Source: a virus
Lineage: Duplodnaviria; Heunggongvirae; Uroviricota; Caudoviricetes
Reading direction: 5' to 3' (one strand)
Virus record (IMG/VR): IMGVR_UViG_2617270967_000008
DNA: 23,006 nt
The position numbers and the translations under genes were made by a program. Of this stretch, positions 6,608 to 19,618 are shown one piece after another. The notes under the pieces were generated by a model. That model worked only from the letters and a program-made list of their open reading frames with translations, was not told the DNA's origin and searched no databases. Every line of letters begins with the position of its first letter. The first letter of the stretch is position 1.

Positions 6608-7127
6608 TCAGCAACCCCGGTATCAGTTCATCCAGCGCGGCTGCTTTGTTCATGGCTTTGATGATATCCCGTTTCAGGAAATCAACATGTCGGTTTTCCA
6701 GTTCCGGAAAACGCCGCTGTACCGAGAGAGGGATCCCGTCAAGAATACTGGCAATTTCACCTGCGATCCGTGACAGCACGAAAGTACAGAATGCGGTTTC
6801 CACCACCTCTGCGGAGTCTCTGGCATTCTTCAGCTCCTGTGCGTCGGCCTGCGCACGCGTAAGTCGATGGCGTTCGTACTCAATAGTCCCAGGCTGGAGA
6901 TCTGCCTCACTGGCAGCCCTGTAATCCTCAACCTCTTTACGGAGTTTTTCATTTTCGATATCAGCTTCCCTCTGCGCATACCACTGAATTGCCATGGCGG
7001 TATCAAATACAGATTCAACGCCCTTACCACCTCCGGAGACGCAAGGGAGTCCCTGAGACTGCCAGCGTTCAATCGTTCGCGGATCCACGTTGAAAATTTC
7101 GGCAAGTTTCTTTTTATTAACCTTCAT
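6582..7127 (-). CDS. nu1: Terminase small subunit Nu1
   Basis: 181 aa with an N-terminal winged-HTH; the C-terminal two thirds are near-identical to lambda Nu1 as recalled. Confidence 0.95.
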
Positions 7128-7129
7128 GA

Positions 7130-7345
7130 AACAGTCTCACAATAAATACAGGGGCCGACATGAAAGTGCCCGAAAATGACTTTTTTAGGCGTTTTCATGT
7201 CGGACCTTTTACGGATTCGATATTAGAAAAAACAAATAGTTATGTTCGAGAAGTACCGACATGATTTTCCCCGGAAAATTTTCATAAATAGCGAAAACCC
7301 GCGAGGTCGCCGCCCCGTAACGGCCCGGATCGCCGGAAAGGACCC
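7130..7345. other. cos site (cosB between Nu1 and cosN; cosN 12-nt cohesive end at 7304-7315; cosQ side to ~7345)
   Basis: Reverse complement of 7271-7315 reads GGGCGGCGACCTCGCGGGTTTTCGCTATTTATGAAAATTTTCCGG, the lambda left-end sequence beginning with the cohesive end. Confidence 0.85.
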
Positions 7346-7521
7346 ACGAAATGATAATGATTATCATCTATATAAGGTTTATCACAACATGTGTGTACGC
7401 CATCAAACCACGAGAAATAATCAATTATGACGCAGGTATCGTATTGATTGATCTGCATCAAATTAACGTAAAAGCAACTTCAGATAATACAAATCAGCAA
7501 CACTGAATATGGGGAAACATT

Positions 7522-7722
7522 ATGTCATCAAAGAACAGAACCCGCAGAACAACAACCCGCAACATCCGATTTCCAAACCAGATGATTGAACAAATTAACA
7601 TCGCTCTTGATCTGAAAGGTTCAGGAAACTTTTCAGCGTGGGTTATTGAAGCCTGCAGGAGAAGGCTGGCAACAGATGCAACGCATCTGCGCCCGGCCAG
7701 CATGAAAAATAACGAGAAATGA
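7522..7722 (+). CDS. Small ribbon-helix-helix-like protein, homologue of the small ORF at the lambda right end
   Basis: MSSKNRTRRTTTRNIRFPNQMIEQINIALD...SAWVIEACRRRL matches the lambda right-end ORF from memory; strand-helix-helix pattern. A Fur-box-like GATAATGATTATCATC lies upstream near 7350. Confidence 0.65.
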   Translation: MSSKNRTRRTTTRNIRFPNQMIEQINIALDLKGSGNFSAWVIEACRRRLATDATHLRPASMKNNEK

Positions 7723-7853
7723 ACGTTCGGCTACAGGAGCAGGTACCCACTGTCCTCCAACAATATTTCATCTTCATATCCGACGGAACAAGACTTACCC
7801 TGCCGGGATGTACAGAATAACAACAGAGTGATAATTAATTTCTGATGAAATAA

Positions 7854-8180
7854 TCAGGGTGCAGAAGGACTAAAGATAAACGTTTTCTTCACGCCTTTAC
7901 ACGGCCTGTCCTTCTCAAATCGCCATTTTGCCATCGCCTTTACAACCTGCTCATCAAACAAATGGTGCGGCTCTGAACGGATAAACTCAATTCGGGTGAC
8001 AGTACCATCAGCACCAATATCAAACTTCACATCAACCCGTCCCTTTATATAATTTGCCGCTGCATAGGCCGGATATTGTGGTAATGCCTTAACCAACTGT
8101 CGGGGCATATCTGTTTTATGTTGCGTACAGCCCATAACCAGAGAAGACAACAAAATAATTAACGGAAGGTTTCTTTTCAT
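7854..8180 (-). CDS. Lipoprotein with TonB C-terminal-domain-like region (moron at the bor-equivalent position)
   Basis: Signal peptide plus lipobox (LVMGC); YPAYAAANYIKGRVDVKFDIGADGTVTRIEFIRSEPHHLFDEQVVKAMAKWRFE aligns to the TonB C-terminal motif pattern. Start ambiguous (8186 or 8180). Confidence 0.65.
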   Translation of the reverse strand: MKRNLPLIILLSSLVMGCTQHKTDMPRQLVKALPQYPAYAAANYIKGRVDVKFDIGADGTVTRIEFIRSEPHHLFDEQVVKAMAKWRFEKDRPCKGVKKTFIFSPSAP

Positions 8181-8196
8181 TTTCATTCCCGGCACA

Positions 8197-8217
8197 GATA
8201 AGAATAAGTCTTATTCT
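8197..8217. promoter_or_regulatory. Perfect inverted repeat AGAATAAG-T-CTTATTCT (with GATA prefix) at the putative -10/+1 of the lipoprotein gene; operator-like, weakly Fur-box-like
   Basis: Direct reading: 8201-8208 is the reverse complement of 8210-8217; sits 11-30 nt upstream of the lipoprotein start on the minus strand. Confidence 0.5.
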
Positions 8218-8524
8218 AACAATGCCACCCTGTCGGTCATCAATCCTCTGCTTAATGGCAACGACAATTATCCGACTTAAATCACAAATCAGACACATGA
8301 CATAACAGAGCTTGCGAGGTAACACATCGTCCGGTTTCTTCCACCATCGCACCGGACCAGCGACCATGAGGGGACAACGCCGCGCTCCGTTAACACGGTA
8401 AACCCCGGTGTGTATCGTTTTTGATTATCCCCGCACACTCGCGCAGAGGAGTCTCCCGGTCGGGCTGCGGTCTCTGTTAATGCGGGGATACGGCGACAAT
8501 ACCGCGCATGGTTAATAAGGTCGC

Positions 8525-8749
8525 TCAACACACTGGCTGTAATGCAGCGGATACCATGCGGCATTTAGCGGCATTCATCGTACACTCAACGGTTAGCTCT
8601 TCATTCGTGGCATTCACCTGAAAGGTCCGGGAGTGTAATTGCGTACATTTACCACTGAACGAACCTTCAACAAGAACACGACCACGCTGCAAAATACGGA
8701 ACGGAATTGTTCCCTGAAAAGGCTTTACGGTTACCAGTAATTTCTTCAT
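8525..8749 (-). CDS. Hypothetical 74-aa protein downstream of Rz
   Basis: ORF with GGAGA 4 nt upstream of ATG 8749; no signal peptide, no recognisable motif. Confidence 0.4.
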   Translation of the reverse strand: MKKLLVTVKPFQGTIPFRILQRGRVLVEGSFSGKCTQLHSRTFQVNATNEELTVECTMNAAKCRMVSAALQPVC

Positions 8750-8772: not shown

Positions 8773-9240
8773 CTAGTTAATACACTGAGTGCGGATATAG
8801 TCCTGCGCCCCTTCCAGTTGCTTCTGCATTGTCATCAACCGCTCTCTGAGGGTGAAATAATCCCGTTCAGCGGTGTCTGCCAGTCGGGGGCCGGTTGCAT
8901 TATCCACGCGGGCGGTGCCGGTGGCTTCACGCACGGAACCTGGACAGGTGGCGTTGATACGCAGGCTGCGGCGACCAGCGGCAACGTCAGCGCGCAGAGT
9001 TTCATTTTCAGCTCTCGCATCGGCTAACTCCTTTGTGTATTTTTCATCCAGCGCAGCAACATCACGCTGACGCTGCTGCATGTCAGTAATGGTTGTGTTT
9101 GCCAGCTCCAGCTCTCTGGCTTTTTTATCGCGCTGCGCTTTGTAGGTGATGGCGTTATCGCGGTAATGATTCAGCCCCAGACTAAGCACACCACAGGCTA
9201 CCAGCAGGACAATAATCACCACACACAGAACACGGTTCAT
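8773..9240 (-). CDS. Rz: Rz i-spanin
   Basis: [16 protein letters not shown]...[15 protein letters not shown]...QKQLEG matches lambda Rz; N-terminal TM; start at ATG 9240 (MNRVLCVV) with a GGTGGTGA RBS. Confidence 0.9.
8835..9020 (-). CDS. Rz1: Rz1 o-spanin lipoprotein, embedded in +1 frame within Rz
   Basis: [25 protein letters not shown]...[30 protein letters not shown] matches lambda Rz1 including lipobox and proline-rich region. Confidence 0.85.
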
Positions 9241-9339
9241 ATCACCACCAACGGATTGCCCAGACCAGAACAGCAATGGCCACAATACGAATGGCAAATG
9301 CCATTGCCCGAATAAGTTCAGCACTCATCTTTTTAAAGT

Positions 9340-9678: not shown

Positions 9679-10212
9679 TTATCTGTCAATTCCCCAGCAC
9701 GCCAGCGCACTCTCCTGGTCGCGACGGGATACCTGACCGTAACAGTTGTTTGAGCGAATACGGCAGTCTCTGCCACCGTCCTTAATCCACCAGCGAATCG
9801 CTTCGCATGCTCCCCTGCGATCACCTGCATTAATTCGTCTGTAAAACGTCGACGGGAAACACTTACCGGGACCAATGTTGTACGGACAGAATGACGCGAT
9901 CCCCGCTTTCTGGGGTTCGGTCAGCGGCACTCTGATGTTTTTCTCCACCCACGCCAGCGCTTTATCACGCTCAATGGCGTTAACCTGGTCGCATTTTTCC
10001 TTCGACAACTTCATGCCCGGAACGACAGGTTTGCCATCCACCATGATGGCACCACGGCAGATGGTCCAGATACCCGCACCATCACGGTATGCCGTGGTGT
10101 GGTTGCCTTCTTTTTCATCCAGAAACTGGTCGAGAATTTCAGGCGCAGACGCACCAGCGGCAATCAGCGCCAGAACGGCAGCCGACAGGCCGTATCTGAT
10201 TTTTGCGTTCAT
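9679..10212 (-). CDS. SAR-type endolysin (phage lysozyme with N-terminal signal-arrest-release domain)
   Basis: N-terminal weakly hydrophobic Gly/Ala-rich segment (LSAAVLALIAAGASAPEIL) followed by a lysozyme-like catalytic region (EGNHTTAYRDGAGIWTICRG); resembles phage 21 R / K-12 prophage Rrr-type lysozymes. Confidence 0.85.
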   Translation of the reverse strand: MNAKIRYGLSAAVLALIAAGASAPEILDQFLDEKEGNHTTAYRDGAGIWTICRGAIMVDGKPVVPGMKLSKEKCDQVNAIERDKALAWVEKNIRVPLTEPQKAGIASFCPYNIGPGKCFPSTFYRRINAGDRRGACEAIRWWIKDGGRDCRIRSNNCYGQVSRRDQESALACWGIDR

Positions 10213-10337
10213 GGATATTTATCAGGATTTATCGGTTCCGAATCCCTGGATATGTTAAGTCTTCAGCCCGCCAGTGGTGGGCACTGGCGTAAACTCAACA
10301 ATGCGAGATGGCTGCCTCGCAAAGATAAGGAACAGAT

Positions 10338-10613
10338 ATGAGTGAAGAAAATAGCAAAGAGAATACAGCACTTTTTGACAGAATTTTTACTCTTGAGTTA
10401 CAGGTCGGTTTTCTTCTCCCAAAGATAATCAAAGCAATGGATGCACTAAGTAAAAATAACGCTGTGTCAGATTACCTGATCGCCGAAATGGAACATCTAA
10501 TTAAAGAAATACCAAAGACAGTTGCTCGTGATGATAAAAGATTCCTCAAGGCTGCTGAAGATGCTCTTTCAACAGTGAAGCGCAGCTTAGATGCGCCGCG
10601 CGATCAAGAATAG
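10338..10613 (+). CDS. Hypothetical 91-aa helical protein, AT-rich, convergent with and overlapping the 3' end of the 176-aa gene
   Basis: ATG 10338 with AAGGAA 7 nt upstream; about 38% GC; overlaps 10546-10613 with the minus-strand gene. Confidence 0.5.
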   Translation: MSEENSKENTALFDRIFTLELQVGFLLPKIIKAMDALSKNNAVSDYLIAEMEHLIKEIPKTVARDDKRFLKAAEDALSTVKRSLDAPRDQE

Positions 10614-11076
10614 TTTCTTTCATTTCATCTGCTGCAAGCACCTCATTTTTTGTTGGGGTGCTTTTTTTCAATTCAGCGATATAGCACTCCAGTTTTTCAA
10701 TGCGTGATTCAATATCATCGTTTTCTGACCGCAATGCCGTCGGTGGCGTCTTCAGAGAACCAGTAATTATTCCCGGTAGTTTTCCTCTGTAGGTTATCAA
10801 CACATCCTGCGCCTCTAAAATTATGGGGCGCTTTTCCGGCAACGGACCATCCCCTTCACATAACCCGGCAGCAACATCCATGAAAAACTGCTTCGCCTGC
10901 TTTTTCGCCTCAGCTTCGTAAAACTCCAGCGTGGCATCTTCAGTACGGTCAAGACTAATCGCCACATCTGGCAACAACAGTGACGGATACCCACCAATTT
11001 CCAGTGCCACAGTAACAGTAATCTTATTCGGGTAATTATTTATCCCTTTAACAACCAGTTCGTATTTTTTCTTCAT
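10546..11076 (-). CDS. Hypothetical 176-aa soluble protein inserted between holin and endolysin
   Basis: ATG 11076 lies 4 nt after the holin stop with GGGGAGAG upstream (translational coupling); no TM or signal peptide; predicted coiled-coil C-terminus; no family recognised. Confidence 0.6.
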   Translation of the reverse strand: MKKKYELVVKGINNYPNKITVTVALEIGGYPSLLLPDVAISLDRTEDATLEFYEAEAKKQAKQFFMDVAAGLCEGDGPLPEKRPIILEAQDVLITYRGKLPGIITGSLKTPPTALRSENDDIESRIEKLECYIAELKKSTPTKNEVLAADEMKETILDRAAHLSCASLLKEHLQQP

Positions 11077-11080
11077 CGCT

Positions 11081-11296
11081 TTACTCTCCCCGCGCCGCCT
11101 TACGACGGTCCTCTCTGATTTTGAAATACAGGTTAGTCAGATATGTCAGCAGCCCAAACAGCAGACTTCCCAGTACGCCTATTGCCGCCCACTGAGACGG
11201 GGAAACCCTGTCCAGCAGCTGCAGGAACCAGTAGCCCGTCCCCACCGCTGACGTGGTGTATGACACACCTGTTGTGATTTTTTCCATCTGGTACAT
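11081..11296 (-). CDS. Class II holin/pinholin of the phage 21 S type, with dual-start motif (M1...M4)
   Basis: 71 aa, ...[50 protein letters not shown], resembles S21 pinholin and K-12 EssD-type holins; two TM segments. Confidence 0.85.
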
Positions 11297-11371
11297 ACCC
11301 CGTCTCCCGCAATCCGGAAGCTCACAACAACAAGAGGGGCATCAGCTCACACCGACAGCCCCTGCGCATGG

Positions 11372-11641
11372 TTACATCATCATTTCGCCGTCAGGCTGAG
11401 GCTCACTGCTACCATCAGGCTGAGACCCGACGCCATCTGAAACAGCACTGTCATCCGCAATGCCTTCCGGCTCCGGAACAGTCGGTGCGCCCAGCAGTTC
11501 ATCCAGAATGGCATCCACTTCTGCATCAAGACGCGCCTCAAGGTTCTGCCGAAGTTGCTGTTTCAGTGCGCTTCTGACTTCTTCAGAGCGCAGGACTTCC
11601 TTCACTGCTTCAGCAGTGACCAGCGATTTTATTTCTGACAT
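11372..11641 (-). CDS. Hypothetical acidic 89-aa protein upstream of the holin
   Basis: ORF from ATG 11641 (MSEIKSLV...); helical N-terminus, acidic Pro/Glu/Asp-rich tail; weak RBS. Confidence 0.4.
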   Translation of the reverse strand: MSEIKSLVTAEAVKEVLRSEEVRSALKQQLRQNLEARLDAEVDAILDELLGAPTVPEPEGIADDSAVSDGVGSQPDGSSEPQPDGEMMM

Positions 11642-11678
11642 GGTATTTTCTCGTTGAAAGGTGTTGTTAAGAAAGTTG

Positions 11679-11861
11679 CTACGGAATGAGAGGCTCTTCG
11701 GGTTTTGTTCCGGCTGACTGACTGGCACTGATTTTCTCAGCGGCCCTTTTGTCAATCTGCCTGCGCCAGAAATCTCTCACGACTCTGTACCCACCAGAAA
11801 GAAGATACAGCACACAAACTGCTGTACAGAAATACAACATAATCAGCTGTAAAAATGTCAT
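11679..11861 (-). CDS. Hypothetical 60-aa membrane peptide
   Basis: ORF with hydrophobic N-terminus (LIMLYFCTAVCVLYLLSG); overlaps the next ORF in another frame. Confidence 0.3.
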   Translation of the reverse strand: MTFLQLIMLYFCTAVCVLYLLSGGYRVVRDFWRRQIDKRAAEKISASQSAGTKPEEPLIP

Positions 11862-12009
11862 TATTCATCTCCATTATTGACATGGTCAATGCCTGCCAGT
11901 AAAAAACTCCTGCATTTTTTGCTCAGCATATTTTTGCTAAGGATGTAGCGACTTCTGCCGCCGGTTCTGGCTCCTTGTTTTCCCTGCCACGGCGGTCTTT
12001 TTTTCCTGC

Positions 12010-13953
12010 TTACGGGTTATTCACTTCCACTGTTATACTTTCAATCAGCACCGGGTAAGTCGCATTTTTAGTGATATCGGTCACGCGCAACTTGTCTGCC
12101 GTAAACGTGCCGACCGGAGACTGCGACAGCATGAATGGTGTCCCGTCCTTACCATCAATGACCGGCGTCACCTCAATACTGTTGTTACCGGCAAAACGGA
12201 AGCCCAGCGTATGCCATTCGTTATTAAATGCGCCGAATGACCCCAGCTTCGTGTTCTGCGCCGTGTTTCCTTTGTGATACATCACGTTAAGGTCTGTGGC
12301 ATCGCTCTGTACGTAGAACGATGCCAGCAGGTTATGACCGGCATTACCTTCCAGTGTGACCCCCTGAGGCAGGGAAGAAACCGGCCAGTACAGCGCCAGT
12401 GCGTACTGATTAGCCGTAAGCGCGCCATCGAGTTTAAAACGACAACTGACAAGACCACCTTTACCCAGCAGGTCCGCACCATTACCAGCATCATGCTCAA
12501 GGTACCAGGGGGCTCTTCCTGTTTCCTTGGTCAGTTTCATTGCCTTACCCCCGCTGGCTCCGGCATCATCCACGATTTGAGCCTTGCCACCTCCGGCAGC
12601 CCAACCCTGTGGTGTCAACCGTCCTTCAGACTCAGATGCCCGGTAAGCAAATAGCGTACTCATCGTCGTGGTGTCTGCGGGTGGCGTGGACGGTTTTGAT
12701 GGTGTATCAGGTGACGGCTTCTCATCCGGTGGTGTCACGGTCTGCCCGCGCATCAGTTCAGCCGTGCGCCCTGCATGGAGCATAATAGCTGAGGCCAGAC
12801 GGTCTGAAATGACGCCCCTGCGTGCCCATGAGCTGAAATGGCTGTCACGCTGTGTCGAAACAAAACTGCCCTGGGTTCGGGATGCTGCACCGTAATACCC
12901 GACAGCCACAATATCCGGGTCTTCCGCCGGAGCATTCGTTGGCGTGCTCTGTCCATTCTCATCCGTCAGGAACGGTACAAAGAAAATATTCTGTGCTTCC
13001 CTGCCCTTGTAACCGCCATATACCGCCTCATATTTATCGGCGTTAAGATTCTTCCAGTAATACGTGGTGTCACCACAAATCCACGGCACCGAGCCAGCAC
13101 TTCCGCCAACACACTGTGCAGAATATGCAGCCATATCAGCCCTGAACTGCTGCACCATAGTGGTAAACAGGCCGCTGTGCTGCTGACTGCCGTCCGCAAG
13201 ATCATTTTCCCCCTGCATCCATACCACGGCCAGAAGCCTGTTTTTCGGGTTCTTCGACAGCGCCGCTTTTGTACGGAAGAGAAAATCCTGATACAGCGGT
13301 TTACCCACTCCCCAGCGGGCTGAATTTGCCGATGCGCCAGACGTTTCGCTGAACGTGCCGTCATTACCCACGGTTAAACCAGACCCGCCACGGCAACAGG
13401 GCACCAGAAGAATCCCGGCATTCTGCGGGATATAAGGCAGAAGTTTTTTGGCAATATGCAGCCCCTGACCGACAGTCCCGTACTGGCCCTTACTCAGGTC
13501 TGCATGAGGATGGTTAAGTGCGCTCATGTCCTGAACATCATGCAGACAGTGGTCTGCCGGAATAACGTCATTGTATGCACAGGTATCACCACCCGGCGTC
13601 ACAGTGCTGCGACGGGCCAGCTGCTTAATACGGGAGTCAGGGCGATCATAGGTCTCCGGCAGAGGAAGCCCCTCACCATAGGCCATACCGTTCGACTGCC
13701 CGGCCAGGGGAATAACGTAGTAATACTCCGGTTCAGTGGTAGCCACTCCCGGAGAGCCACCAGCCCCTGTGTCGGGCACAACCACAGGCGTGGTCACATC
13801 ACCCTCTGCGGCAATGGCCTGCATCAGTGTATAAGGCGTGATAGCCACAGGACTGCCAAACGGCTGCCAGCCTTCCTTCAGTTTTTGTGTCAGTCGCTCC
13901 GCAAGGTCTGACGGCGACGCCGCCCTGACCACGTCATAGTGTTTAAATGCCAT
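12010..13953 (-). CDS. nanS: Prophage sialate O-acetylesterase (NanS-p-like; the large ORF that follows stx in Stx phages)
   Basis: N-terminus MAFKHYDVVRAASPSDLAERLTQKLKEGWQPFGSP is the characteristic start of these esterases as I recall; about 647 aa; strong RBS AAGGGGAGGA before ATG 13953. Confidence 0.8.
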   Translation of the reverse strand: MAFKHYDVVRAASPSDLAERLTQKLKEGWQPFGSPVAITPYTLMQAIAAEGDVTTPVVVPDTGAGGSPGVATTEPEYYYVIPLAGQSNGMAYGEGLPLPETYDRPDSRIKQLARRSTVTPGGDTCAYNDVIPADHCLHDVQDMSALNHPHADLSKGQYGTVGQGLHIAKKLLPYIPQNAGILLVPCCRGGSGLTVGNDGTFSETSGASANSARWGVGKPLYQDFLFRTKAALSKNPKNRLLAVVWMQGENDLADGSQQHSGLFTTMVQQFRADMAAYSAQCVGGSAGSVPWICGDTTYYWKNLNADKYEAVYGGYKGREAQNIFFVPFLTDENGQSTPTNAPAEDPDIVAVGYYGAASRTQGSFVSTQRDSHFSSWARRGVISDRLASAIMLHAGRTAELMRGQTVTPPDEKPSPDTPSKPSTPPADTTTMSTLFAYRASESEGRLTPQGWAAGGGKAQIVDDAGASGGKAMKLTKETGRAPWYLEHDAGNGADLLGKGGLVSCRFKLDGALTANQYALALYWPVSSLPQGVTLEGNAGHNLLASFYVQSDATDLNVMYHKGNTAQNTKLGSFGAFNNEWHTLGFRFAGNNSIEVTPVIDGKDGTPFMLSQSPVGTFTADKLRVTDITKNATYPVLIESITVEVNNP

Positions 13954-14040
13954 TATTCCTCCCCTTTCCGGGATTTTCCTCAACAGTTGCGGGCCACGGT
14001 CCGGCTACACGGAGAATCAAAAGAGGAGAACCGCAGCCCG

Positions 14041-14072
14041 CAAAACGAAAAAGGCCGCGCAGTTGCGCAGCC
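14041..14072 (-). terminator. Rho-independent terminator upstream of nanS-p
   Basis: Minus-strand GGCUGCGC-aacu-GCGCGGCC 8-bp stem followed by UUUUUCGUUUUG. Confidence 0.65.
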
Positions 14073-14133
14073 TTATCACAGATGGTAAAAATCAGAACAC
14101 GATAATAAAAATACCTGATGTATATTCATGCGA

Positions 14134-14165
14134 CCCGCCCGCCACTCACTGCGGGCTTTTTTTTG
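14134..14165 (+). terminator. Plus-strand hairpin followed by T8
   Basis: CCCGC-cactcact-GCGGG then TTTTTTTT on the + strand; the opposite orientation to the surrounding genes. Confidence 0.5.
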
Positions 14166-14171
14166 CCCATA

Positions 14172-14199
14172 GAAAAGCCCCTCCGGAGAGGGGCTTTTT
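14172..14199. terminator. Bidirectional rho-independent terminator
   Basis: AGCCCCTC-cgga-GAGGGGCT flanked by AAAA and TTTT. Confidence 0.65.
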
Positions 14200-14439
14200 A
14201 CAGTGGTAGTGTAGACAATTTTGCATGGTGCCGGGTGCCTCCCGGTGAGTTCAGTATCAGCACCTGAACCCGCACAGAAAGGATAAGGGTCGGTGACAAA
14301 ACACCAGTTGCTGATTGCCCCTCCGCACAGGGGGATTCACCATGCCAGTTTCTTTTAACAAACTCCCCGCAAACCAGACAACAGTCAACCGCCTGAATTG
14401 TGAGGTATTTAAAAATTTCAACGGGTAACTGATACCCTG

Positions 14440-14613
14440 CTAATCGCCTGATGCTTTCTTTTTCAGCAACGGGAAAGCAACAACCACCACACCCGCCACC
14501 AGCACACCGTCAGCCAGCACTGACATTATCCGGCTGCTGAAGTCCACCATCACCACCATCACTACCAGAAACAGCAGGAGCGCAACCACAGCCAGACGCA
14601 TTTTTACCGTCAC
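14440..14613 (-). CDS. Small two-TM hydrophobic peptide (~57 aa) translationally coupled to the TerB-like gene
   Basis: GTG 14613..14611 overlaps the TerB stop (GTGA) with GGAGA 7 nt upstream; an ATG lies at 14601; own translation MRLAVVALLLFLVVMVVMVDFSSRIMSVLADGVLVAGVVVVAFPLLKKKASGD. Below the ORF-track size cutoff. Confidence 0.45.
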   Translation of the reverse strand: MTVKMRLAVVALLLFLVVMVVMVDFSSRIMSVLADGVLVAGVVVVAFPLLKKKASGD

Positions 14614-15041
14614 AGATGATTCTCCAGACGAAGGCCCAGAACACCGGCAATCTCTTCCAGCACCTTGCGCTCTTCCGGCTCTATTTCGCCGTCTGCTTCG
14701 GCAATGGCCACCGCCACATCCAGCACGTCTTCCGCTTCACGCGTATCGTGTTTCACATCCTCGATCTCACGTAACGCCGCTCGACGACCAATTTTAAAGT
14801 TCGTATCCAGCTGACCGATAATGGTTGCGCTAATCGCATTAATTTCTGACGTAAACGCGGACAACGCAGGCTGGTTACGCAAGACCTGCTCGATCTTCGC
14901 TTTCTCTGAAGCCTCACATTCACCATCTGCATAGGCCACCAGATAGGCAGCATTAATAACCGCCTGTGCCAGATCACGTTTCTCAAACTTTTTAATTTCC
15001 ACTGCCGCTCGGCGGGCTTTTTTACCAAAAATACCAAACAT
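14610..15041 (-). CDS. TerB-domain (tellurite-resistance TerB-like) protein, cargo at the stx-equivalent position
   Basis: Two ADG-containing helix pairs (AAYLVAYADGECEASEKAKI and VAVAIAEADGEIEPEERKVLEEIAGVLG) typical of TerB; start at ATG 15041 (MFGIFGKK) with AAGGAA 8 nt upstream. Confidence 0.7.
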   Translation of the reverse strand: MFGIFGKKARRAAVEIKKFEKRDLAQAVINAAYLVAYADGECEASEKAKIEQVLRNQPALSAFTSEINAISATIIGQLDTNFKIGRRAALREIEDVKHDTREAEDVLDVAVAIAEADGEIEPEERKVLEEIAGVLGLRLENHL

Positions 15042-15181
15042 CGTGACGTTCCTTTGGGTGGGTGAGCCAACGCCCGGGAGCGATCTGCCCACAGAGAAAG
15101 TCACACTGACCACTCCGTAAGCTCACCCCCGAAAGGCTCTGTGGTTGATATGCGCCGGGCGTGGCGCGGATACAAAAAAGG

Positions 15182-15210
15182 CCCGCAAAAGCGAGCCGGG
15201 AAAAATAAGT
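15182..15210 (-). terminator. Terminator after the tRNA cluster
   Basis: Minus-strand GGCUCGC-uuuu-GCGGGCC (one G-U pair) followed by UUUUUUGU. Confidence 0.55.
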
Positions 15211-15211
15211 C

Positions 15212-15288
15212 TGGCGCGTTGTACTGGATTCGAACCAGTGACCGATTGCTTAGAAGGCAATTGCTCTGTCCGGCTGAGCTAACAACGC
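15212..15288 (-). tRNA. tRNA-Arg (anticodon UCU)
   Basis: Hand-folded cloverleaf: acceptor GCGTTGT/ACAACGC, D-arm GCTC/GAGC, anticodon loop CTTCTAA, T-arm ACTGG-TTCGAAT-CCAGT, discriminator G, encoded CCA. Confidence 0.85.
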
Positions 15289-15304
15289 AGGATACAGATA
15301 ATGA

Positions 15305-15378
15305 ACCGCCTTCGGGGATCCGAACTCCGCGCAACCAGCTTCGAAGGCTGGCGCTCTTTCCTGATGAGCTAATGGCGG
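15305..15378 (-). tRNA. tRNA-Arg-like (anticodon UCG) with non-canonical features; possibly degenerate
   Basis: Hand fold: D-arm GCTC/GAGC, anticodon arm CCAGC-CTTCGAA-GCTGG; T-loop TTCGGAT with one A-C mismatch in the T-stem; acceptor 6/7 paired, starts C1-G72, no encoded CCA. Confidence 0.5.
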
Positions 15379-15385
15379 TATGTGA

Positions 15386-15461
15386 TGGTGGCCCTTGCTG
15401 GATTTGAACCAGCGACCTGGCGATTATGAGTCGCTCGCTCTCACCACTGAGCTAAAGGGCC
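15386..15461 (-). tRNA. tRNA with anticodon CAU, resembling E. coli tRNA-Ile2 (ileX-like) rather than tRNA-Met
   Basis: Hand fold: acceptor GGCCCTT/AAGGGCC, anticodon loop CTCATAA, T-arm GCTGG-TTCAAAT-CCAGC, encoded CCA; overall resemblance to ileX as recalled. Confidence 0.8.
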
Positions 15462-15489
15462 GAGCCAAAAAATAATAATCAGATGAAAA

Positions 15490-16203
15490 TCAATAATCAA
15501 GCCCTTGCCTGGATACATATCTGTCTGGCGGGAAGCCATAATAGCGGTGAAATACAGAAATAAAGTAGGACCTGCTTGAATAACCGCATTTTTCTGCTAT
15601 AGCCTGTCCATATCCATGCCGGGAACATAACATATTTACAGCAACACGCATCCGCTCTTCCAGCAACAAGCGACTGAACATGCCCCCTTCATTTTTCAGT
15701 TTTGTCTTTAACAAACTCTCACTCATATGCAACTGTAGAGCAATCGCACAAAGCGTCCAGCTTGCTGATATATCTGTCTGAATTATCGCCCTGACTTTGG
15801 CACTTATGCTGGATAAACATCCACTTAAAAACAATGACATCCGTTCATCTGTTTCAAACAGAGACAGGCAGGCCATCATAAGAAACATATCCGTGGCCTC
15901 TCCGGAAAATCCCTGGCTGGTAATTAAAGCCGCAGCCAACGCAGGATTGTTGGGTTCCAGCAACAGGTAAAGCGGAATGTCAGTCAGACGAGTCCTCGTC
16001 AGCTTATGCTGACTTTCCAGATATTGACTTACGACGGATTCGCTTATATCGACAATTTTAACTTTGCCATAATGCATAAGGAAAAGCTCCCTGATGCATT
16101 TGGTGGCCAGAACAACTGAGCCTGGCTTAAGTGACAACGTATCCTTTTCAAGAAAAATATTAATTGGGGAGCAAACCATGATAACTGAACAGACAACAGC
16201 CAT
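15490..16203 (-). CDS. AraC/XylS-family transcriptional regulator (AppY/EnvY-like; prophage regulatory cargo)
   Basis: C-terminal double-HTH (...LLKTKLKNEGGMFSRLLLEERMRVAVNMLCS...AEKCGYSSRSYFISVFHRYYGFPP) resembles EnvY/AppY; N-terminus MAVVCSV like AppY MDYVCSV; AT-rich. Confidence 0.85.
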   Translation of the reverse strand: MAVVCSVIMVCSPINIFLEKDTLSLKPGSVVLATKCIRELFLMHYGKVKIVDISESVVSQYLESQHKLTRTRLTDIPLYLLLEPNNPALAAALITSQGFSGEATDMFLMMACLSLFETDERMSLFLSGCLSSISAKVRAIIQTDISASWTLCAIALQLHMSESLLKTKLKNEGGMFSRLLLEERMRVAVNMLCSRHGYGQAIAEKCGYSSRSYFISVFHRYYGFPPDRYVSRQGLDY

Positions 16204-16237
16204 TATAATTTTACTTTCATTAGCAATTGGTTAGCTC

Positions 16238-16268
16238 AATTATAGCCCCAAAAGGTAAATTATCATCA
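16238..16268 (-). promoter_or_regulatory. Putative sigma-70 promoter for the AraC-family gene (-10 TATAAT, -35 TTGATG, 19-bp spacer)
   Basis: Minus strand reads TTGATGataatttaccttttggggcTATAAT about 30 nt upstream of the start codon. Confidence 0.5.
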
Positions 16269-16321
16269 ACACATAAGCAAAGGACTGACAGGTGTCGCCC
16301 CCCACCAGCCGCCCATTCACC

Positions 16322-16350
16322 ACAAATAAAAAGCCTTCAGGACTGAAGGC
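16322..16350 (-). terminator. Terminator overlapping the 3' end of the small wHTH gene
   Basis: Minus-strand GCCUUCAG/CUGAAGGC hairpin followed by UUUUUAUUU. Confidence 0.6.
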
Positions 16351-16534
16351 GTCTGTAACAACCGCACTGATAGTCTGCCAGACCCACCATAACAAGCTGG
16401 GTCAGTATTAACTGGCAGCGTTCGCGTGAAAGGTAAGTATTCTGCGCAATCTCCCCGACGGTCGCCGGTTCGGTGACGCTTAATTCATTAAACACCACTC
16501 TGGCGGTTTCTGTCATATCCTGCTGTTTTAGCAT
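16337..16534 (-). CDS. Small (65-aa) putative winged-helix DNA-binding protein, first ORF after pR'/tR'
   Basis: ATG 16534 (MLKQQDMTE...) with GGAAAAGGGA upstream; TVGEIAQNTYLSRERCQLILTQLVMVGLA resembles an HTH recognition helix. Confidence 0.45.
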   Translation of the reverse strand: MLKQQDMTETARVVFNELSVTEPATVGEIAQNTYLSRERCQLILTQLVMVGLADYQCGCYRRLQS

Positions 16535-16656
16535 GTCTTTTTCCCTTTTCCGGTTAACGTGACACACCAATAACTCTTGTCGAAAAAGCCAGCAAGCTGA
16601 AAGACAGGTATTCACCGCCACCAGCGCGTTTACTGTACTGACGCGATTTCAGTCAT

Positions 16657-16680
16657 AAAAACCCCGCCAGGCGGCGGGGT
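16657..16680 (-). terminator. tR'-like terminator immediately downstream of pR'
   Basis: Minus-strand CCCCGCC-gccu-GGCGGGG followed by UUUUU. Confidence 0.7.
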
Positions 16681-16685
16681 GTAAA

Positions 16686-16755
16686 AAATCTTCTAACGTC
16701 AGGCATAAAACGCCCATCGTTAGAGCAAATTTACCACAGATTCGGGAAAAATCAA
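16686..16755 (-). promoter_or_regulatory. Late promoter pR' with qut-like region (-35 TTGATT at 16755-16750, -10 TAAATT at 16733-16728)
   Basis: Minus strand GGTAAATTTGCTCTAACGATGGG closely matches the lambda pR' region GGTAAATTTGACTCAACGATGGG as recalled; starts 6 nt after the Q stop. Confidence 0.75.
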
Positions 16756-16760
16756 CAACA

Positions 16761-17582
16761 CTATCGCGTTACCCTCTTTAACTGCCGCTCCGCCCATGCC
16801 TCTTCAATGTCAAACCGAACCACCAACGTATCGTAAAAGCGTTTCACTGATTTTTTCCACGTATCAAGCGTGATAGCACTCGTCACTTTGCATATGGCAT
16901 TAAATGCCTCCGTTGATGGTAGTCTTTCACAGCCACGACCACCACAACGCTGGCAGTCTCTGATAACAGGCATACCACGTTTTACCGACTCTTCACGATG
17001 AATGGCGACACCACGCCCACGGCAATCCTTACAGGCGGTGGAAACCTCACCCTTTCCGCCACACTCCGGACAGGCAACTTTTACCACCTCCCTGACTTTT
17101 TTCCATTCTTCCCAGTAAGACGGATACACACCTTTCGTACACTTTGCCCATACCGGCGGCTTACCATCCGGATACTGGACCTTGTTTGTAAAAACTACGC
17201 TTTCAATAAATTTTTCCCCATAGCAACAAGGGCACTGCTTTTTACTCGCTGCGCTGCGGGCATAATCCTCAAAAGCGTACGAAGCCATAATGCGCATCAC
17301 TACCGGTTTTATTTCTGCCGGGAGTTTTCTTAACGCCGCCACGCGATCACACCGACTGAGTGCATATTCTGTCAGCAATTCTGTTGCCCGCTCTCTGTCA
17401 TTCATACTAATGCCCATTTTACCAAGGAACGCAGAAAACCCCATCTCAGCCCGATTCTGTGTCATGCCCTGCGCGGCCATCACATCAGTGATACTCAGCG
17501 CATCTTTCGACGTTGAGGCCGATGCATCAGTCAGGCCGGGGGATTTTGGGGAGTAGTATTTCGGTAAATCTTCCAGTTTCAT
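16761..17582 (-). CDS. Q: Late-gene antiterminator Q (lambda Q family)
   Basis: Alignable to lambda Q at the N-terminus (YSPKSPGLTD...DVMAAQGM), zinc-binding cysteines, and C-terminus (TLDTWKKSVKRFYDTLVV...LKRVTR); 273 aa with insertions. Confidence 0.85.
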   Translation of the reverse strand: MKLEDLPKYYSPKSPGLTDASASTSKDALSITDVMAAQGMTQNRAEMGFSAFLGKMGISMNDRERATELLTEYALSRCDRVAALRKLPAEIKPVVMRIMASYAFEDYARSAASKKQCPCCYGEKFIESVVFTNKVQYPDGKPPVWAKCTKGVYPSYWEEWKKVREVVKVACPECGGKGEVSTACKDCRGRGVAIHREESVKRGMPVIRDCQRCGGRGCERLPSTEAFNAICKVTSAITLDTWKKSVKRFYDTLVVRFDIEEAWAERQLKRVTR

Positions 17583-17956
17583 TTTTTGACCTGCCCTTCA
17601 AGCATTATGGGGTAAATCTTCACCCCCAGACGTCCACCAGATACTGGCTGACCACGAACGATATTGATTTCATCAAACTGCTCATCGTCCATTAACACTC
17701 CCGCATGCGTCAGCGCATCCAGCGGTGCTTTCAGGATATTGTCCAGGTCGCGACGACGCTTATCCGGAAGCTCTGCAATCACCTTTATCGCCAGCCTTCC
17801 GGACAGGCTTAATTTCAGCCGCTGCTGGCGAACAATAAGCGCCACAGCCCGGCGATAACGCTTTCCCTCCTCCGAGATAAAATATGTGCTGCCACGGCGT
17901 CGCCAGTAAGTGTTCACCGTCGGCGGGTAAGGTAAAACCAAATCTATGAGCATCAC
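17579..17956 (-). CDS. rusA: Holliday-junction resolvase RusA
   Basis: 125 aa; PDKRRRDLDNILKAPLDALTHAGVLMDDEQ matches the RusA catalytic core; 4-nt overlap with the Q start. Confidence 0.85.
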   Translation of the reverse strand: MMLIDLVLPYPPTVNTYWRRRGSTYFISEEGKRYRRAVALIVRQQRLKLSLSGRLAIKVIAELPDKRRRDLDNILKAPLDALTHAGVLMDDEQFDEINIVRGQPVSGGRLGVKIYPIMLEGQVKK

Positions 17957-17965
17957 TCACCTCTT

Positions 17966-19015
17966 TTACCCAAGCACGCCAGTTGCAAAGGCGTGATCAA
18001 GAAAACGAAAAATTAAATCAACCTGAGAACCATGCTTTTCTTCGAACGCCAGAGGATCCGCATGAAGCTCGTTGTGATGCTCCCGACACAGCGGTAGCGT
18101 GAAAATATCGTGAGATTTTGTCCCCATTCCGCCCTGACCATGACCAATCAGGTGATGGGGATCGTCGGCTGGCTTACCACAACACGCACACGGCTGTGTC
18201 TTCACCCAGCGTGTGTATTTCTCGTTAACCCAGCGGCGACGTTTAGGTCGTTTCATGAAAGATTCCGGAGACTCAGGATCAACGGCAATGCTGACCACCG
18301 TCTTTTCCTGTGGTGGGTTCTGTTGCTGGTGGGCGTGAGGCAGCGGCGCAAGATTTTTTGTGCGCTGTTTCAGTATGCTGGTGGCGGTCTGCTCTCCCGG
18401 TACGATGTCGCTTTCACGGTACATTGAGCGGATTTTTTCCGCACGCAACCCCAGCGAACGACGTAATACCGCTTCCGGTAGCGCGTCCGCCACCTGATTG
18501 CGGACCGCCCACCAGGATAATTCAGCCAGCGATAATTCCCGCTCCTGTGTGCCATTCATTGCGTGACGAATGACGTCAATCATCCATGCTGACAAGTTTT
18601 GGTGAGCAAGTTGCTCAAGTGATTCGGAGGTCTGGTCACGCAACTGGTTGTCGCAGTGCCAGCACAACACCATTGCGCCGGTACCATAACGGTGAATGAC
18701 GGTTTCGCTGTGATGATAATCGCCGTGTGGCCACTGGCAGGATTTAATATGGCGCAACAGCCAGTCAGACAATGCACCAGCACCACCAGCAGCACGAATC
18801 ACCCGTGCGTTACTGAAAAACGGCAGCAATGTTTTGTCTTCCACCAGCGGCTGGCGAACGGCAGGAACGACCCCGGACGGCAGATTACGCATGCTTTTCG
18901 GTTCCGGCTCCACCAGTACCCGGGTATTGTGGAATACCGGCATGGATTCACGGCCCGGCTTAACGATCACCAGCCCGAGTTCCGGTACCAGAACAGGTCG
19001 AAGTAATACTCGCAC
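17966..19015 (-). CDS. DUF968-type protein (YdfU-like) with C-terminal Cys/His-rich HNH-like motif
   Basis: 349 aa, the same length as K-12 Qin YdfU as I recall; C-terminal CACCGKP...HHLIGHGQGGMGTKSHD...CREHHNELH motif. Confidence 0.6.
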   Translation of the reverse strand: MRVLLRPVLVPELGLVIVKPGRESMPVFHNTRVLVEPEPKSMRNLPSGVVPAVRQPLVEDKTLLPFFSNARVIRAAGGAGALSDWLLRHIKSCQWPHGDYHHSETVIHRYGTGAMVLCWHCDNQLRDQTSESLEQLAHQNLSAWMIDVIRHAMNGTQERELSLAELSWWAVRNQVADALPEAVLRRSLGLRAEKIRSMYRESDIVPGEQTATSILKQRTKNLAPLPHAHQQQNPPQEKTVVSIAVDPESPESFMKRPKRRRWVNEKYTRWVKTQPCACCGKPADDPHHLIGHGQGGMGTKSHDIFTLPLCREHHNELHADPLAFEEKHGSQVDLIFRFLDHAFATGVLG

Positions 19016-19016
19016 G

Positions 19017-19295
19017 TTACCTCCAGATGCGTTGCTGGAATGTGCGGGACGGACGCGGTGAGCGTTCGGAGTAAGGAAGCCTGACGGAGATTATCCAGTG
19101 ACGATAATCGAGGCTGAGGGCTTTCTTAATCTCGTATCCGTGTCTGCGGTAGCACTGAATTAGCCACTCGGCCTGTTCTTCAGTGCATGGGGGATGCTGG
19201 AACCAGTCAGATTTGAAAGTGCGGGAACGCCGCCCGTGCCTGCTGGCAAAGACGGCAGAATCATCAGAATTGTGTAATTTGGTATCGTGCGCCAT
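19017..19295 (-). CDS. Hypothetical ~92-aa protein (position equivalent to rem of Qin; identity unverified)
   Basis: ATG 19295 (MAHDTKLH...) downstream of a terminator and a TTGTTT-N18-TACAAT promoter-like sequence; the upstream ORF-track extension contains the terminator. Confidence 0.35.
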   Translation of the reverse strand: MAHDTKLHNSDDSAVFASRHGRRSRTFKSDWFQHPPCTEEQAEWLIQCYRRHGYEIKKALSLDYRHWIISVRLPYSERSPRPSRTFQQRIWR

Positions 19296-19365
19296 CGGTT
19301 GTCTCTGCTGGCGCAGCAGGTGCCAGTTGTTCAGGCTGGCGTGCGAATTGTAAACCAGAATGCCA

Positions 19366-19394
19366 GGAAAAAACAAAACCCGCCGAAGCGGGTT
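19366..19394 (-). terminator. Rho-independent terminator downstream of hok
   Basis: Minus-strand AACCCGC-uucg-GCGGGUU followed by UUGUUUUUU. Confidence 0.65.
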
Positions 19395-19462
19395 ACGTGC
19401 GGGTGCGTTGAGGATGCCTGACACATCAGAGGTGGCGAGGGGTTTCTCCCTCGCCGGGTCTC

Positions 19463-19618
19463 TTACTCCTCAGGTTCGTAAACTGTGAAGACAGCGACCT
19501 CCGTCTGGCCGGTTCGGATTCGTACCTCGCAGAGGTCTTTCCTCGTTACCAGTGCCGTCACTATGACGGTTAAACAGATGACGATCAGGGCGATTAACAT
19601 CGCCTTTTGCTGCTTCAT
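19463..19618 (-). CDS. hokD: Hok/Gef-family type I toxin (HokD-like, 51 aa)
   Basis: MKQQKAMLIALIVICLTVIVTALVTRKDLCEVRIRTGQTEVAVFTVYEPEE is near-identical to HokD as I recall; AAGGAG RBS; an upstream in-frame ATG gives a mok-like extension. Confidence 0.85.
   Translation of the reverse strand: MKQQKAMLIALIVICLTVIVTALVTRKDLCEVRIRTGQTEVAVFTVYEPEE

Follow-up and report, generated by a model that had tools for sequence, protein, structure and literature searches.

A TerB–DUF3927 cassette in the stx2AB slot of a Shiga toxin-negative lambdoid late region

Gene content of the late region

The window, by which we mean the whole stretch of DNA that was analyzed, is 23,006 nucleotides in length and comes from a virus of the Caudoviricetes (IMG/VR record IMGVR_UViG_2617270967_000008). 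Its minus strand carries, one after the other, Q, a small ORF, an AraC-type regulator, three tRNAs (tRNA-Ile2/Arg/Arg), a hairpin with a T-run and the gene pair tciA (TerB)–tciB (DUF3927). These are followed by the STnc100 sRNA, nanS-p, DUF1378, DUF826, holin S, DUF1327, R and Rz/Rz1. The features are:

16761..17582, minus: late antiterminator Q, 273 aa, Antiterm family with DnaJ-like CXXC zinc motifs (Pfam PF03589, E 5e-51; 'antitermination protein' in the nearest genome)
16661..16680, minus: tR'-like intrinsic terminator, a G+C-rich hairpin and T-run directly 3' of Q (terminator scan)
16337..16621, minus: small conserved ORF 3' of Q (PHROGs match, phrog_331)
15490..16203, minus: AraC-type regulator, YdeO/GadX-like (Pfam HTH_AraC/HTH_18; phrog_1450)
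15386..15461, minus: tRNA with CAT anticodon, tRNA-Ile (ileZ-like) in annotated relatives (ARAGORN, Rfam, annotation)
15303..15379, minus: tRNA-Arg (TCG) (ARAGORN, Rfam)
15212..15288, minus: tRNA-Arg (TCT) (ARAGORN, Rfam)
15174..15197, minus: post-tRNA hairpin GGCTCGC-TTTT-GCGGGCC and T6 (terminator scan, alignments)
14416..15173, minus: cargo segment, 758 bp (blastn against the empty allele L005; junction sequences)
14610..15041, minus: TerB-domain protein, 143 aa from ATG, P1 TciA-like (Pfam TerB; phrog_632)
14440..14613, minus: DUF3927/TciB-like peptide, 57 aa (Pfam DUF3927, E 9e-20; phrog_1470)
14165..14374, minus: STnc100-family sRNA with its own terminator (Rfam RF02076)
12010..13953, minus: nanS-p, prophage sialate O-acetylesterase with DUF1737, SASA/NanS esterase and lectin-like DUF6645 (Pfam; matches to 3PT5 and 6YP6)
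11679..11861, minus: DUF1378 small protein (ORF; annotated at the same position in L001 and L005)
11372..11641, minus: DUF826 protein (Pfam DUF826, E 1e-36; annotated version 270 nt)
11081..11296, minus: class II holin S, phage 21 type (Pfam PF04971, E 9e-33)
10546..11076, minus: DUF1327/YdfR-like protein, 176 aa (Pfam DUF1327, E 1.5e-44)
9679..10212, minus: endolysin R, phage lysozyme (Pfam PF00959, E 3e-24)
8773..9324, minus: Rz-like spanin ORF with a tentative start codon and an embedded Rz1-like ORF at 8835-9020 (ORFs)

Several of these reading frames have other lengths in annotated relatives. The nearest genome annotates a shorter form of the small ORF after Q, with a length of 198 nt, as 'TrmB family', a TTG start would lengthen the DUF826 ORF to 11755, and the DUF1327/YdfR-like protein has 176 aa here vs 104-114 aa in relatives. 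The Rz-like ORF region and the endopeptidase/Rz region of L002 share 91% identity (blastn).

It was originally predicted that the order of Q, tRNAs, cargo, nanS-p and lysis genes mirrors that of Stx-converting phages. The order does mirror that of Stx2 phages, yet Q is not adjacent to the tRNAs, as the small ORF and the AraC-type regulator lie between them. The predicted phage tRNAs are present as a cluster of three (15212-15461, all on the minus strand by ARAGORN) that is 92% identical to the cluster of Stx2 phages by blastn. Stx2-phage homology (94%) begins at the tR'-like terminator, where window positions 16301-16678 correspond to 10158-10536 of L002 (blastn). The Q families differ, a PF03589 protein of 273 aa in the window vs a 933W-type protein of 126 aa in the Stx2a phage compared, but the 273-aa type is also found in Stx2 phages (L010). 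The AraC-type regulator occupies a second variable slot, upstream of the tRNAs, which in Stx2 phages holds a DNA methylase. As its NCBIfam scores are below cut-off for both YdeO (108.6 bits) and GadX, no equivalog was assigned to it. A sigma-70 consensus scan gives promoter-like sites upstream of the AraC gene (16266-16239) and directly upstream of the CAT tRNA (15500-15472).

Of the features that define an Stx-converting phage, the late region with Q, tRNAs, nanS-p and S-R-Rz is found here and stxA and stxB are not. Across the whole window the best tblastn matches of Stx2A and Stx2B have E values of 0.58 and 2.8, which agrees with the predicted lack of Shiga toxin genes.

NanS-p and the TerB/DUF3927 pair

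The nanS-p ORF extends over 12010-13983 on the minus strand when read from a TTG, and its likely ATG start is at 13953. From this ATG the protein has 647 aa, the same length as annotated in the nearest genome. All three Pfam domains score over their curated cut-offs: DUF1737 (aa 13-60, E 1e-15), SASA (aa 159-288, 45.7 bits with a cut-off of 24.8) and DUF6645 (aa 506-623, E 3e-68). Residues 71-391 align with the NanS/YjhS of E. coli (PDB 3PT5, E 2e-113), and the esterase block AGQSN(G/A)MAYGEG with its GQSN motif is kept in this alignment. For residues 432-646 the match is the solved C-terminal domain of NanS-p (PDB 6YP6, E 9e-98). These domains and matches establish that the large ORF is a NanS-p homolog, with exactly the coordinates (12010-13953) given in the original prediction. 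Judged by its sequence, NanS-p is intact and full-length with all three domains.

The layout of DUF1737, esterase and lectin-like C-terminal domain has been described (PMC10462455) and is that of the NanS-p proteins of 933W (L0105/Z1466) and Phi24B (vb_24B_21, 6YP6), where the gene is likewise upstream of the lysis cassette. In the window it is found in the lambdoid late region upstream of holin S, as in relatives. The chromosomal NanS/YjhS (3PT5) is homologous in its esterase and lacks DUF1737 and the C-terminal lectin-like domain. The protein is a divergent allele with 69% full-length identity to the NanS-p of an Stx2a phage, a similarity far beyond chance. The nanS-p alleles of many prophages are active esterases, and deacetylation of Neu5,9Ac2 as well as growth on it were shown for other alleles (PMC8065619). 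By homology to these, the protein would take 9-O-acetyl groups off mucin-derived Neu5,9Ac2 and supply the host with a carbon source.

The cargo starts with a 132-nt leader, continues with tciA/TerB and tciB/DUF3927 and ends in a short hairpin and T-run on the 3' side. As originally predicted, its two genes encode a TerB protein (14610-15041) and a peptide (14440-14613), and Pfam and PHROGs add that the peptide belongs to DUF3927. TerB reaches 58.5 bits in Pfam (cut-off 24.4) and matches phrog_632 over its full length with an E value of 3e-69; its counterpart in phage JLK-2012 is annotated tciA. The peptide scores 70.8 bits against a cut-off of 25, and its hydropathy shows two hydrophobic segments. 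The GTG start of DUF3927 overlaps the TerB stop codon (GTGA), which suggests that the two genes are translationally coupled.

A TerB domain that passes the Pfam gathering score, with a small TciB-like membrane peptide after it, is the arrangement of a P1 TciA-TciB-like cassette. In the tciA-tciB-tciC operon of P1 a TerB-domain protein is likewise followed by a small hydrophobic protein, and the window pair gives full-length matches to the PHROG families labeled TciA ('tellurite resistance') and TciB-like. The P1 operon is likewise a variable accessory region (PMC9603915). The window differs from P1 in that no tciC was recognized in it and in that its site is a lambdoid late operon and not the P1 plasmid-prophage. 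Other ter genes (terC, terD, terE, terZ and terA) were found neither among the window ORFs and domains nor in annotated relatives, and because of this a 'tellurite resistance' label for the cargo is not justified. In NCBIfam TerB gives only a weak hit to a DjlA segment (28.9 bits vs 162), so no equivalog is assigned here either. TerB and the two-helix DUF3927 peptide would probably form a membrane-anchored TerB module, analogous to the TerB-like segment of DjlA.

Borders and alleles of the cargo slot

Breakpoints were mapped by comparison with three Stx2 phages, with five loci that carry tciAB and one that carries a methyltransferase, and with two alleles that are naturally empty; with these 11 loci and 60 table rows the slot survey is a sample rather than a census. 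The motifs that bracket the slot are the hairpin G[CT]TCGCTT..G[CT]GG[GA]C-T(6-8) and GCATGGTGAATCCCCC. One slot is common to all mapped loci, from the hairpin and T-run after the last tRNA-Arg to the STnc100 sRNA before nanS-p. In blastn, homology to the three Stx2 loci ends at window position 15163 and resumes at 14403, so the alignment of the tRNA-to-nanS interval to Stx2 phages, proposed with the original prediction, does locate the breakpoints. Relative to the empty allele L005 the insert is 14416-15173. The tciAB segment fills the stx2AB slot to within a few nucleotides. In another prophage the same slot holds a SAM-dependent methyltransferase, and in others it is empty. Between the hairpin and the STnc100 core there are 89-90 nt in empty alleles, 789-851 nt where the slot holds tciAB, 1129 nt where it holds the methyltransferase and 1420 nt for stx2AB.

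The cargo interval of ~1.2 kb had been compared to the size of stx2AB. This match is a coincidence, because the mapped borders give a segment of 758 bp of tciAB where Stx2 phages carry 1335 bp of stx2AB. The whole tRNA-to-nanS-p interval is 1258 bp in the window vs 1842 bp in an Stx2a phage, and a conserved spacer with STnc100, present in Stx2 phages too, accounts for about 460 bp of the 1258.

The upstream border of the slot is the post-tRNA hairpin, which is kept in filled and empty alleles and shows one compensatory CG-to-UA pair. The downstream conserved flank, in all contexts compared, is STnc100 (RF02076), which scores 145.6 bits vs a Rfam gathering score of 47, covers model positions 1-206 and has a terminal hairpin and U-run. 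The element is also found in L002, L003 and L004, and in Stx2 phages it lies directly 3' of stx2B. TerB and the esterase are conserved neighbors of prophage sRNAs (bioRxiv 10.64898/2026.05.13.724894). The cargoes themselves also share sequence. A related leader, TATCYGCGCC-N6-GGYGC…, opens the three unrelated cargoes tciAB, methyltransferase and stx2AB; about 45 nt of it are common to tciAB and the methyltransferase, and the leader of the window cargo resembles that of stx2 over its first ~27 nt. Empty alleles do not have this leader.

How did such different genes come to the same position? The most likely mechanism would be cargo exchange between co-resident lambdoid prophages by homologous recombination in the conserved flanks, with the tRNAs, hairpin and leader on one side and STnc100 and nanS-p on the other. 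Another option, which we consider a real if minor one, is that each cargo was inserted independently and illegitimately at the T-run after the tRNA terminator, as a moron, with the empty alleles being ancestral. In the two empty alleles AAATGTCTCACAATTCAG follows directly on hairpin-T8, and the tciAB and methyltransferase inserts finish in their own A/T-rich runs (…GAAATTTTT and …GAAAATTTT), so that each insert is bracketed by T-runs like a classic moron with its own terminator. However, a related leader before three unrelated cargoes is unexpected for independent insertions; it fits a replacement downstream of the leader, with empty alleles arising by deletion between T-runs. When the cargo is compared with a moron, its 3' end has only a weak 5-bp hairpin and T-run, and two further points speak against accretion: the GC content of 0.52 shows no composition anomaly relative to the surroundings, and the consensus scan finds no promoter of its own in the leader.

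Beyond exchange by homologous recombination, we can suggest, tentatively and as something rather unlikely, that the stx slot is a defined 'payload bay' whose borders are fixed, by the post-tRNA hairpin and its T-run at one end and by TCACAATTCAG/STnc100 at the other, and in which unrelated payloads (stx2AB, tciAB and a SAM-dependent methyltransferase) all stand behind a related leader of ~27-45 nt with a conserved small hairpin. If this leader is functional, as an RNA processing or translation signal or as a recombination anchor, it would explain both the exchange and the co-regulation of toxin and non-toxin cargoes. A systematic census of lambdoid cargoes at the toxin position would then be possible.

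Expression, possible role and origin of the cargo

The promoter search was a simple sigma-70 consensus scan, which can miss promoters, and it found no sigma-70-like site on the coding strand of the 132-nt leader. A TTGAC(T/A) upstream of STnc100 was weighed as a -35 box, and by eye there is no acceptable -10 at 16-18 nt from it. Because the cargo has no recognizable sigma-70 promoter of its own and is positioned behind terminator-like hairpins, it would be transcribed, like stx2AB, mainly within the Q-antiterminated late transcript. In the lysogen, transcripts that start at the tRNA promoter may in addition read through into the cargo.

From its domain content, the TerB/DUF3927 module would probably act in envelope stress or in colicin or phage tolerance. 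A more specific hypothesis is that the pair is an anti-phage or anti-colicin exclusion system of the lysogen and does not have a late, lytic-cycle function. The terB-containing ter operons are implicated in phage inhibition and colicin resistance, and the P1 tciABC operon was named on this basis (PMC9603915); in both P1-like and lambdoid phages the cassette is among the variable accessory modules, and PHROGs places both genes among morons. Against this stands the PADLOC scan of TerB, DUF3927, the AraC regulator, nanS-p and their neighbors, in which nothing was significant (best E 0.003, 14.6 bits) and by which we rejected the cargo as a known defense system. The absence of a promoter-like site for lysogenic expression in the consensus scan also counts against it, as does the literature search for TciA/TciB, which found no experimental report: papers on P1-plasmids only repeat the homology-based name, and the one paper found that brings together tciA, stx and prophages has 'TciA' just as a table entry. 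We therefore regard an exclusion system as improbable, though worth keeping in mind.

Taken as a whole, the window very probably contains the Q-to-lysis late region of an stx-negative lambdoid prophage of E. coli with tciAB in the stx slot. The Stx2 phages Stx2_14040 (LC567818) and ASU11 (ON416862) and the RM10466 prophage have the same late-region architecture, tRNA-Ile2/Arg/Arg cluster and post-tRNA hairpin, and share with the window the STnc100 flank, nanS-p, DUF1378, DUF826, the class II holin and the cargo slot with its borders. A recent origin of the window from an Stx2-converting phage, by a swap of stx2AB for tciAB with loss of the toxin, is nevertheless very unlikely: the slot borders are identical to those of three Stx2 loci, the tRNA cluster and the ORF downstream of Q are 92% and 94% identical to those of Stx2 phages, and the stx2-like start of the leader and the 273-aa Q of some Stx2 phages would fit, but in the nanS-p/STnc100 flank nucleotide identity is just 70-72% with each of the Stx2 loci compared, even the best matches in the phage database span no more than 44% of 11000-16300, with an identity of about 80%, and many non-Stx prophages with a different Q and different or no tRNAs carry tciAB at 85-99% identity, which makes the cassette an old, independently circulating module. 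Of the two origins put forward in the original prediction, an stx-negative relative or a cargo-swapped derivative, a relative that shares the slot stands and a recent Stx-phage derivative, given these flanks and the other Q family, does not.

The arrangement is not unusual; the whole of it is already known and has been deposited and annotated many times, in phage JLK-2012, PPyecE_EH1910 and O157:H7 chromosomes, and nanS-p is already recognized in non-Stx prophages (PMC10462455; PMC8065619). JLK-2012 (NC_049942/JQ347801, from E. coli O55:H7 DEC5E) shares the order Q–(tRNAs)–tciA–tciB–STnc100–yjhS/nanS-p–holin–endolysin–Rz, and O157:H7 non-Stx prophages (NZ_CP038376, locus L009) and PPyecE_EH1910 (LC567835) have the order of the window; the genes are already named tciA, tciB and yjhS in annotations. 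The cargo is 98.6% identical to that of JLK-2012 and 85-91% identical to those of the O157:H7 prophages and PPyecE_EH1910, whereas the nanS-p alleles of all these have about 70% nucleotide identity to that of the window. JLK-2012 has another Q and tRNA-Asn/Thr/Gly in place of Ile/Arg/Arg, PPyecE_EH1910 lacks tRNAs and combines a 933W-type Q with a methylase, and the AraC-type regulator between Q and the tRNAs is an addition of the window relative to these prophages.

Stx-negative lambdoid prophages with nanS-p, ileZ/argN/argO-like tRNAs and a TciA-TciB cassette are part of the standard accessory genome of E. coli, including O157:H7 and O55:H7, and the finding has little weight as a discovery. 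The TerB/DUF3927 pair is very common in E. coli. What is added here is small: the anatomy of the slot at the nucleotide level (borders, empty allele, alternative cargoes) and the leader common to different cargoes. This description can be used for mining genomes for payloads at the stx position and for designing stx-replacement constructs. The cargo is found at a coverage of at least 80% in at least 790 of 5,426 complete E. coli genomes (about 15%), the order tRNA-Arg/TerB/DUF3927/esterase occurs in O157:H7, O145:H28 and other genomes, and the tciAB cassette is also found behind other tRNA sets or without tRNAs. Few genomes have the exact mosaic of the window: seven of the 5,426 cover at least 80% of 11000-16300, one of them at 98.7% identity.

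The late region and its esterase

The window is E. coli prophage DNA; among chromosomes it matches NZ_CP145714 best, with 97-98.7% identity across 10825-19395 and the same annotated genes. From the ORF listing, all relevant genes are carried on the minus strand.

Features of the late region, with the basis of each assignment
16761-17582, -, late antiterminator Q (Pfam Antiterm, E 5e-51)
16680-16661, -, tR'-like hairpin (terminator scan)
16337-16621, -, small conserved ORF (phrog_331)
15490-16203, -, AraC-type regulator (Pfam and NCBIfam searches)
15461-15212, -, tRNA(CAT), tRNA-Arg(TCG), tRNA-Arg(TCT)
15197-15174, -, hairpin GGCTCGC-TTTT-GCGGGCC + T6 (terminator scan)
14610-15041, -, TerB-domain protein (Pfam)
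14440-14613, -, DUF3927 peptide, 57 aa (Pfam)
14374-14165, -, STnc100-family sRNA, RF02076, full-length (Rfam, 145.6 bits vs gathering score 47)
12010-13953, -, nanS-p, large ORF (ORF, Pfam, structure-database alignments)
11679-11861, -, DUF1378 (ORF, annotation of nearest genome)
11372-11641, -, DUF826 (Pfam, annotation of nearest genome)
11081-11296, -, class II holin (Pfam)
10546-11076, -, DUF1327 protein (Pfam)
9679-10212, -, lysozyme (Pfam)
8773-9324, -, Rz/Rz1 (ORFs, match to Stx2_14040 locus)

The original prediction of a nanS-p-like esterase depended on the homology of the large ORF, and it stands: DUF1737, SASA and DUF6645 each exceed the Pfam cut-offs. Residues 71-391 match chromosomal NanS/YjhS (3PT5, E 2e-113) in an alignment that takes in the AGQSN…YGEG block, and residues 432-646 match the crystallised C-terminal domain of phage NanS-p (6YP6, E 9e-98). 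Along its whole length the protein shares 69% identity with the NanS-p of an Stx2a phage; at 647 aa it has the usual length in the family (PMC10462455). By homology with active alleles, of which several can occur in one genome (reviewed in PMC8065619), it probably removes O-acetyl groups from Neu5,9Ac2, and its lectin-like domain probably targets glycans. Non-Stx prophages also carry nanS-p (PMC10462455). The three predicted tRNAs are real, in a cluster 92% identical to that of Stx2 phages, and the Shiga toxin genes are indeed absent (tblastn of Stx2A and Stx2B, whole window, best E 0.58).

The toxin slot and its cargoes

Alignment of the tRNA-to-nanS interval with Stx2 phages placed the breakpoints at 15163 and 14403. 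Against the Stx2a phage Stx2_14040 (LC567818), 11072-14403 aligns at 72% identity, from the holin to ~46 bp below the stx2B stop, and 15163-15465, with tRNAs and hairpin, at 92%; in two more Stx2 loci homology ends at identical points. Strain CEA212U has a naturally empty allele: tRNA-Arg, hairpin, T8, AAATGTCTCACAATTCAG…, STnc100, esterase. Relative to it, the TerB/DUF3927 cargo (the tciAB cassette, after P1 tciA/tciB) is an insert of 758 bp (14416-15173) and stx2AB one of 1335 bp, with a common junction. We also measured how far the hairpin lies from the invariant STnc100 core in loci where both anchors were located.

Slot content and hairpin-to-STnc100-core distance
Empty, 2 loci, 89-90 nt
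tciAB, 5 loci, 789-851 nt
SAM-dependent methyltransferase, 1 locus, 1129 nt
stx2AB, 3 loci, 1420 nt

From the common junctions and this spacing it follows that the window cargo sits in the toxin slot. TerB and the peptide thus occupy the stx position, as had been proposed, with borders common to three Stx2 loci and the empty alleles. The proposed size match (1.2 kb, about that of stx2AB) fails, the replaced segments being 758 bp vs 1335 bp, because ~460 bp of the interval then considered is conserved STnc100 spacer that is also present in Stx2 phages.

The STnc100-family sRNA (14165-14374) lies between the cargo and nanS-p; the element is found directly 3' of stx2B in Stx2 phages and 3' of tciB in phage JLK-2012 (from O55:H7) and PPyecE_EH1910. 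In the latter, the AgvB anti-sRNA adjoins it on the opposite strand. A 2026 preprint describes TerB and the sialic-acid esterase as conserved neighbours of prophage sRNAs, with discussion of STnc100 (10.64898/2026.05.13.724894).

The inserts carry unrelated cargoes (tciAB, methyltransferase or stx2AB), and each opens with a related leader, TATCYGCGCC-N6-GGYGC…. This leader (window 15042-15173 (-); compared loci L002, L003, L004 and L008-L011) contains a small conserved hairpin, GCGCC-N6-GGYGC, preserved via G·U changes, and is absent from both empty alleles (L005, L006). The leader fits replacement better than independent insertion, and it might merit a systematic census.

The window had been read as an stx-negative relative or a cargo-swapped derivative of Stx phages. 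It is a slot-sharing relative, but not a recent derivative, since identity in its nanS-p-side flank reaches only 70-72% with each of the Stx2 loci compared, its Q is not of the 933W type and the best phage-database matches to 11000-16300 reach at most 44% coverage at ~80% identity. The tciAB cassette itself circulates on its own: it is 98.6% identical in JLK-2012, where Q differs and tRNA-Asn/Thr/Gly lie upstream, 91% in an O157:H7 prophage with Ile/Arg/Arg tRNAs, and 85% in PPyecE_EH1910, without tRNAs. The simplest mechanism would be homologous exchange at conserved flanks between co-resident lambdoid prophages.

Every module of the window is common, and the feature is an ordinary one that was known before. 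The annotation of JLK-2012 already has the order tciA, tciB, yjhS, S, R, Rz, those of PPyecE_EH1910 and of O157:H7 chromosomes show the same gene order, and 790 of 5,426 complete E. coli genomes have the cargo at a coverage of at least 80%. Among 60 of 2,932 matching records, the tRNA-Arg/TerB/DUF3927/esterase order was found in O157:H7, O145:H28 and other genomes, together with the Stx2, methyltransferase and empty variants. The mosaic is uncommon: seven genomes cover at least 80% of 11000-16300, one at 98.7% identity. The only small addition of this work is the nucleotide-level slot anatomy and the leader common to the cargoes.

Expression and function of the cargo

The consensus scan found promoter-like sites before the AraC gene and the tRNAs and none in the 132-nt cargo leader, and on the way to the cargo there are several terminator-like hairpins. 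Given these, expression would most likely come from the Q-antiterminated late transcript, as for stx2AB; read-through from the tRNA unit is another possible source.

TerB matches phrog_632 over its full length, a family labelled 'tellurite resistance', as is tciA of JLK-2012, and shows a weak resemblance to the TerB-like part of DjlA, a membrane co-chaperone (NCBIfam). The DUF3927 peptide matches a TciB-like PHROG family and has two hydrophobic segments; its GTG start shares bases with the stop codon of TerB, which suggests translational coupling. On these grounds we favour, speculatively, a membrane-anchored TerB module that may affect envelope stress, colicin or phage tolerance. The window has no further ter genes, PADLOC gave no significant defence-system match for TerB/DUF3927, and a literature search found no experimental work on TciA/TciB.

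Other variable positions

A second variable position, from the ORF downstream of Q to the tRNAs, holds the AraC-type regulator in the window and a DNA methylase in Stx2 phages. The regulator (phrog_1450) is YdeO/GadX-like but below the NCBIfam cut-offs, and has its own promoter-like site at 16266-16239. As a class it can be likened to PatE/PsrA/PsrB, prophage regulators of acid resistance and T3SS (PMC10877973). At a third position, STnc100 to nanS-p, some related prophages carry the anti-adaptor gene iraM on the opposite strand (L006 4715-5050 and L007 2638-2973, in place of window 13954-14168); all that is left of nanS-p in locus L007 is a fragment with DUF1737, and DUF3927 is shortened there.

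Window 7000-8700, which separates Rz from the gene for the small terminase subunit, is a stretch of low GC (0.42-0.48) and another cargo slot. Within it, 7513-8510 is 96% identical to JLK-2012, with YlcI/YnfO- and TonB-like ORFs, and the nearest genome has other genes there ('beta family' and 'sce7726 family' proteins). The DUF1327 ORF (176 aa) exceeds the YdfR-family proteins of relatives in length; between it and lysozyme lies a plus-strand ORF, 10338-10613 (phrog_18136), within a stretch (10290-10740) that neither the nearest genome nor the Stx2a phage shares. A sok antisense RNA (19613-19788 (-), RF01794, 112 bits) overlaps a 70-aa ORF (19463-19675 (-)), together a hok/mok/sok-type toxin-antitoxin locus, and an O157:H7 prophage has an annotated hokD at the corresponding position. 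The PasA/PasC sRNAs were described beside the holin/lysozyme operon, across the esterase from PasD2/STnc100 (2026 preprint); the intergenic stretches 11297-11371 and 11862-12009 are the places in the window relevant to this location.
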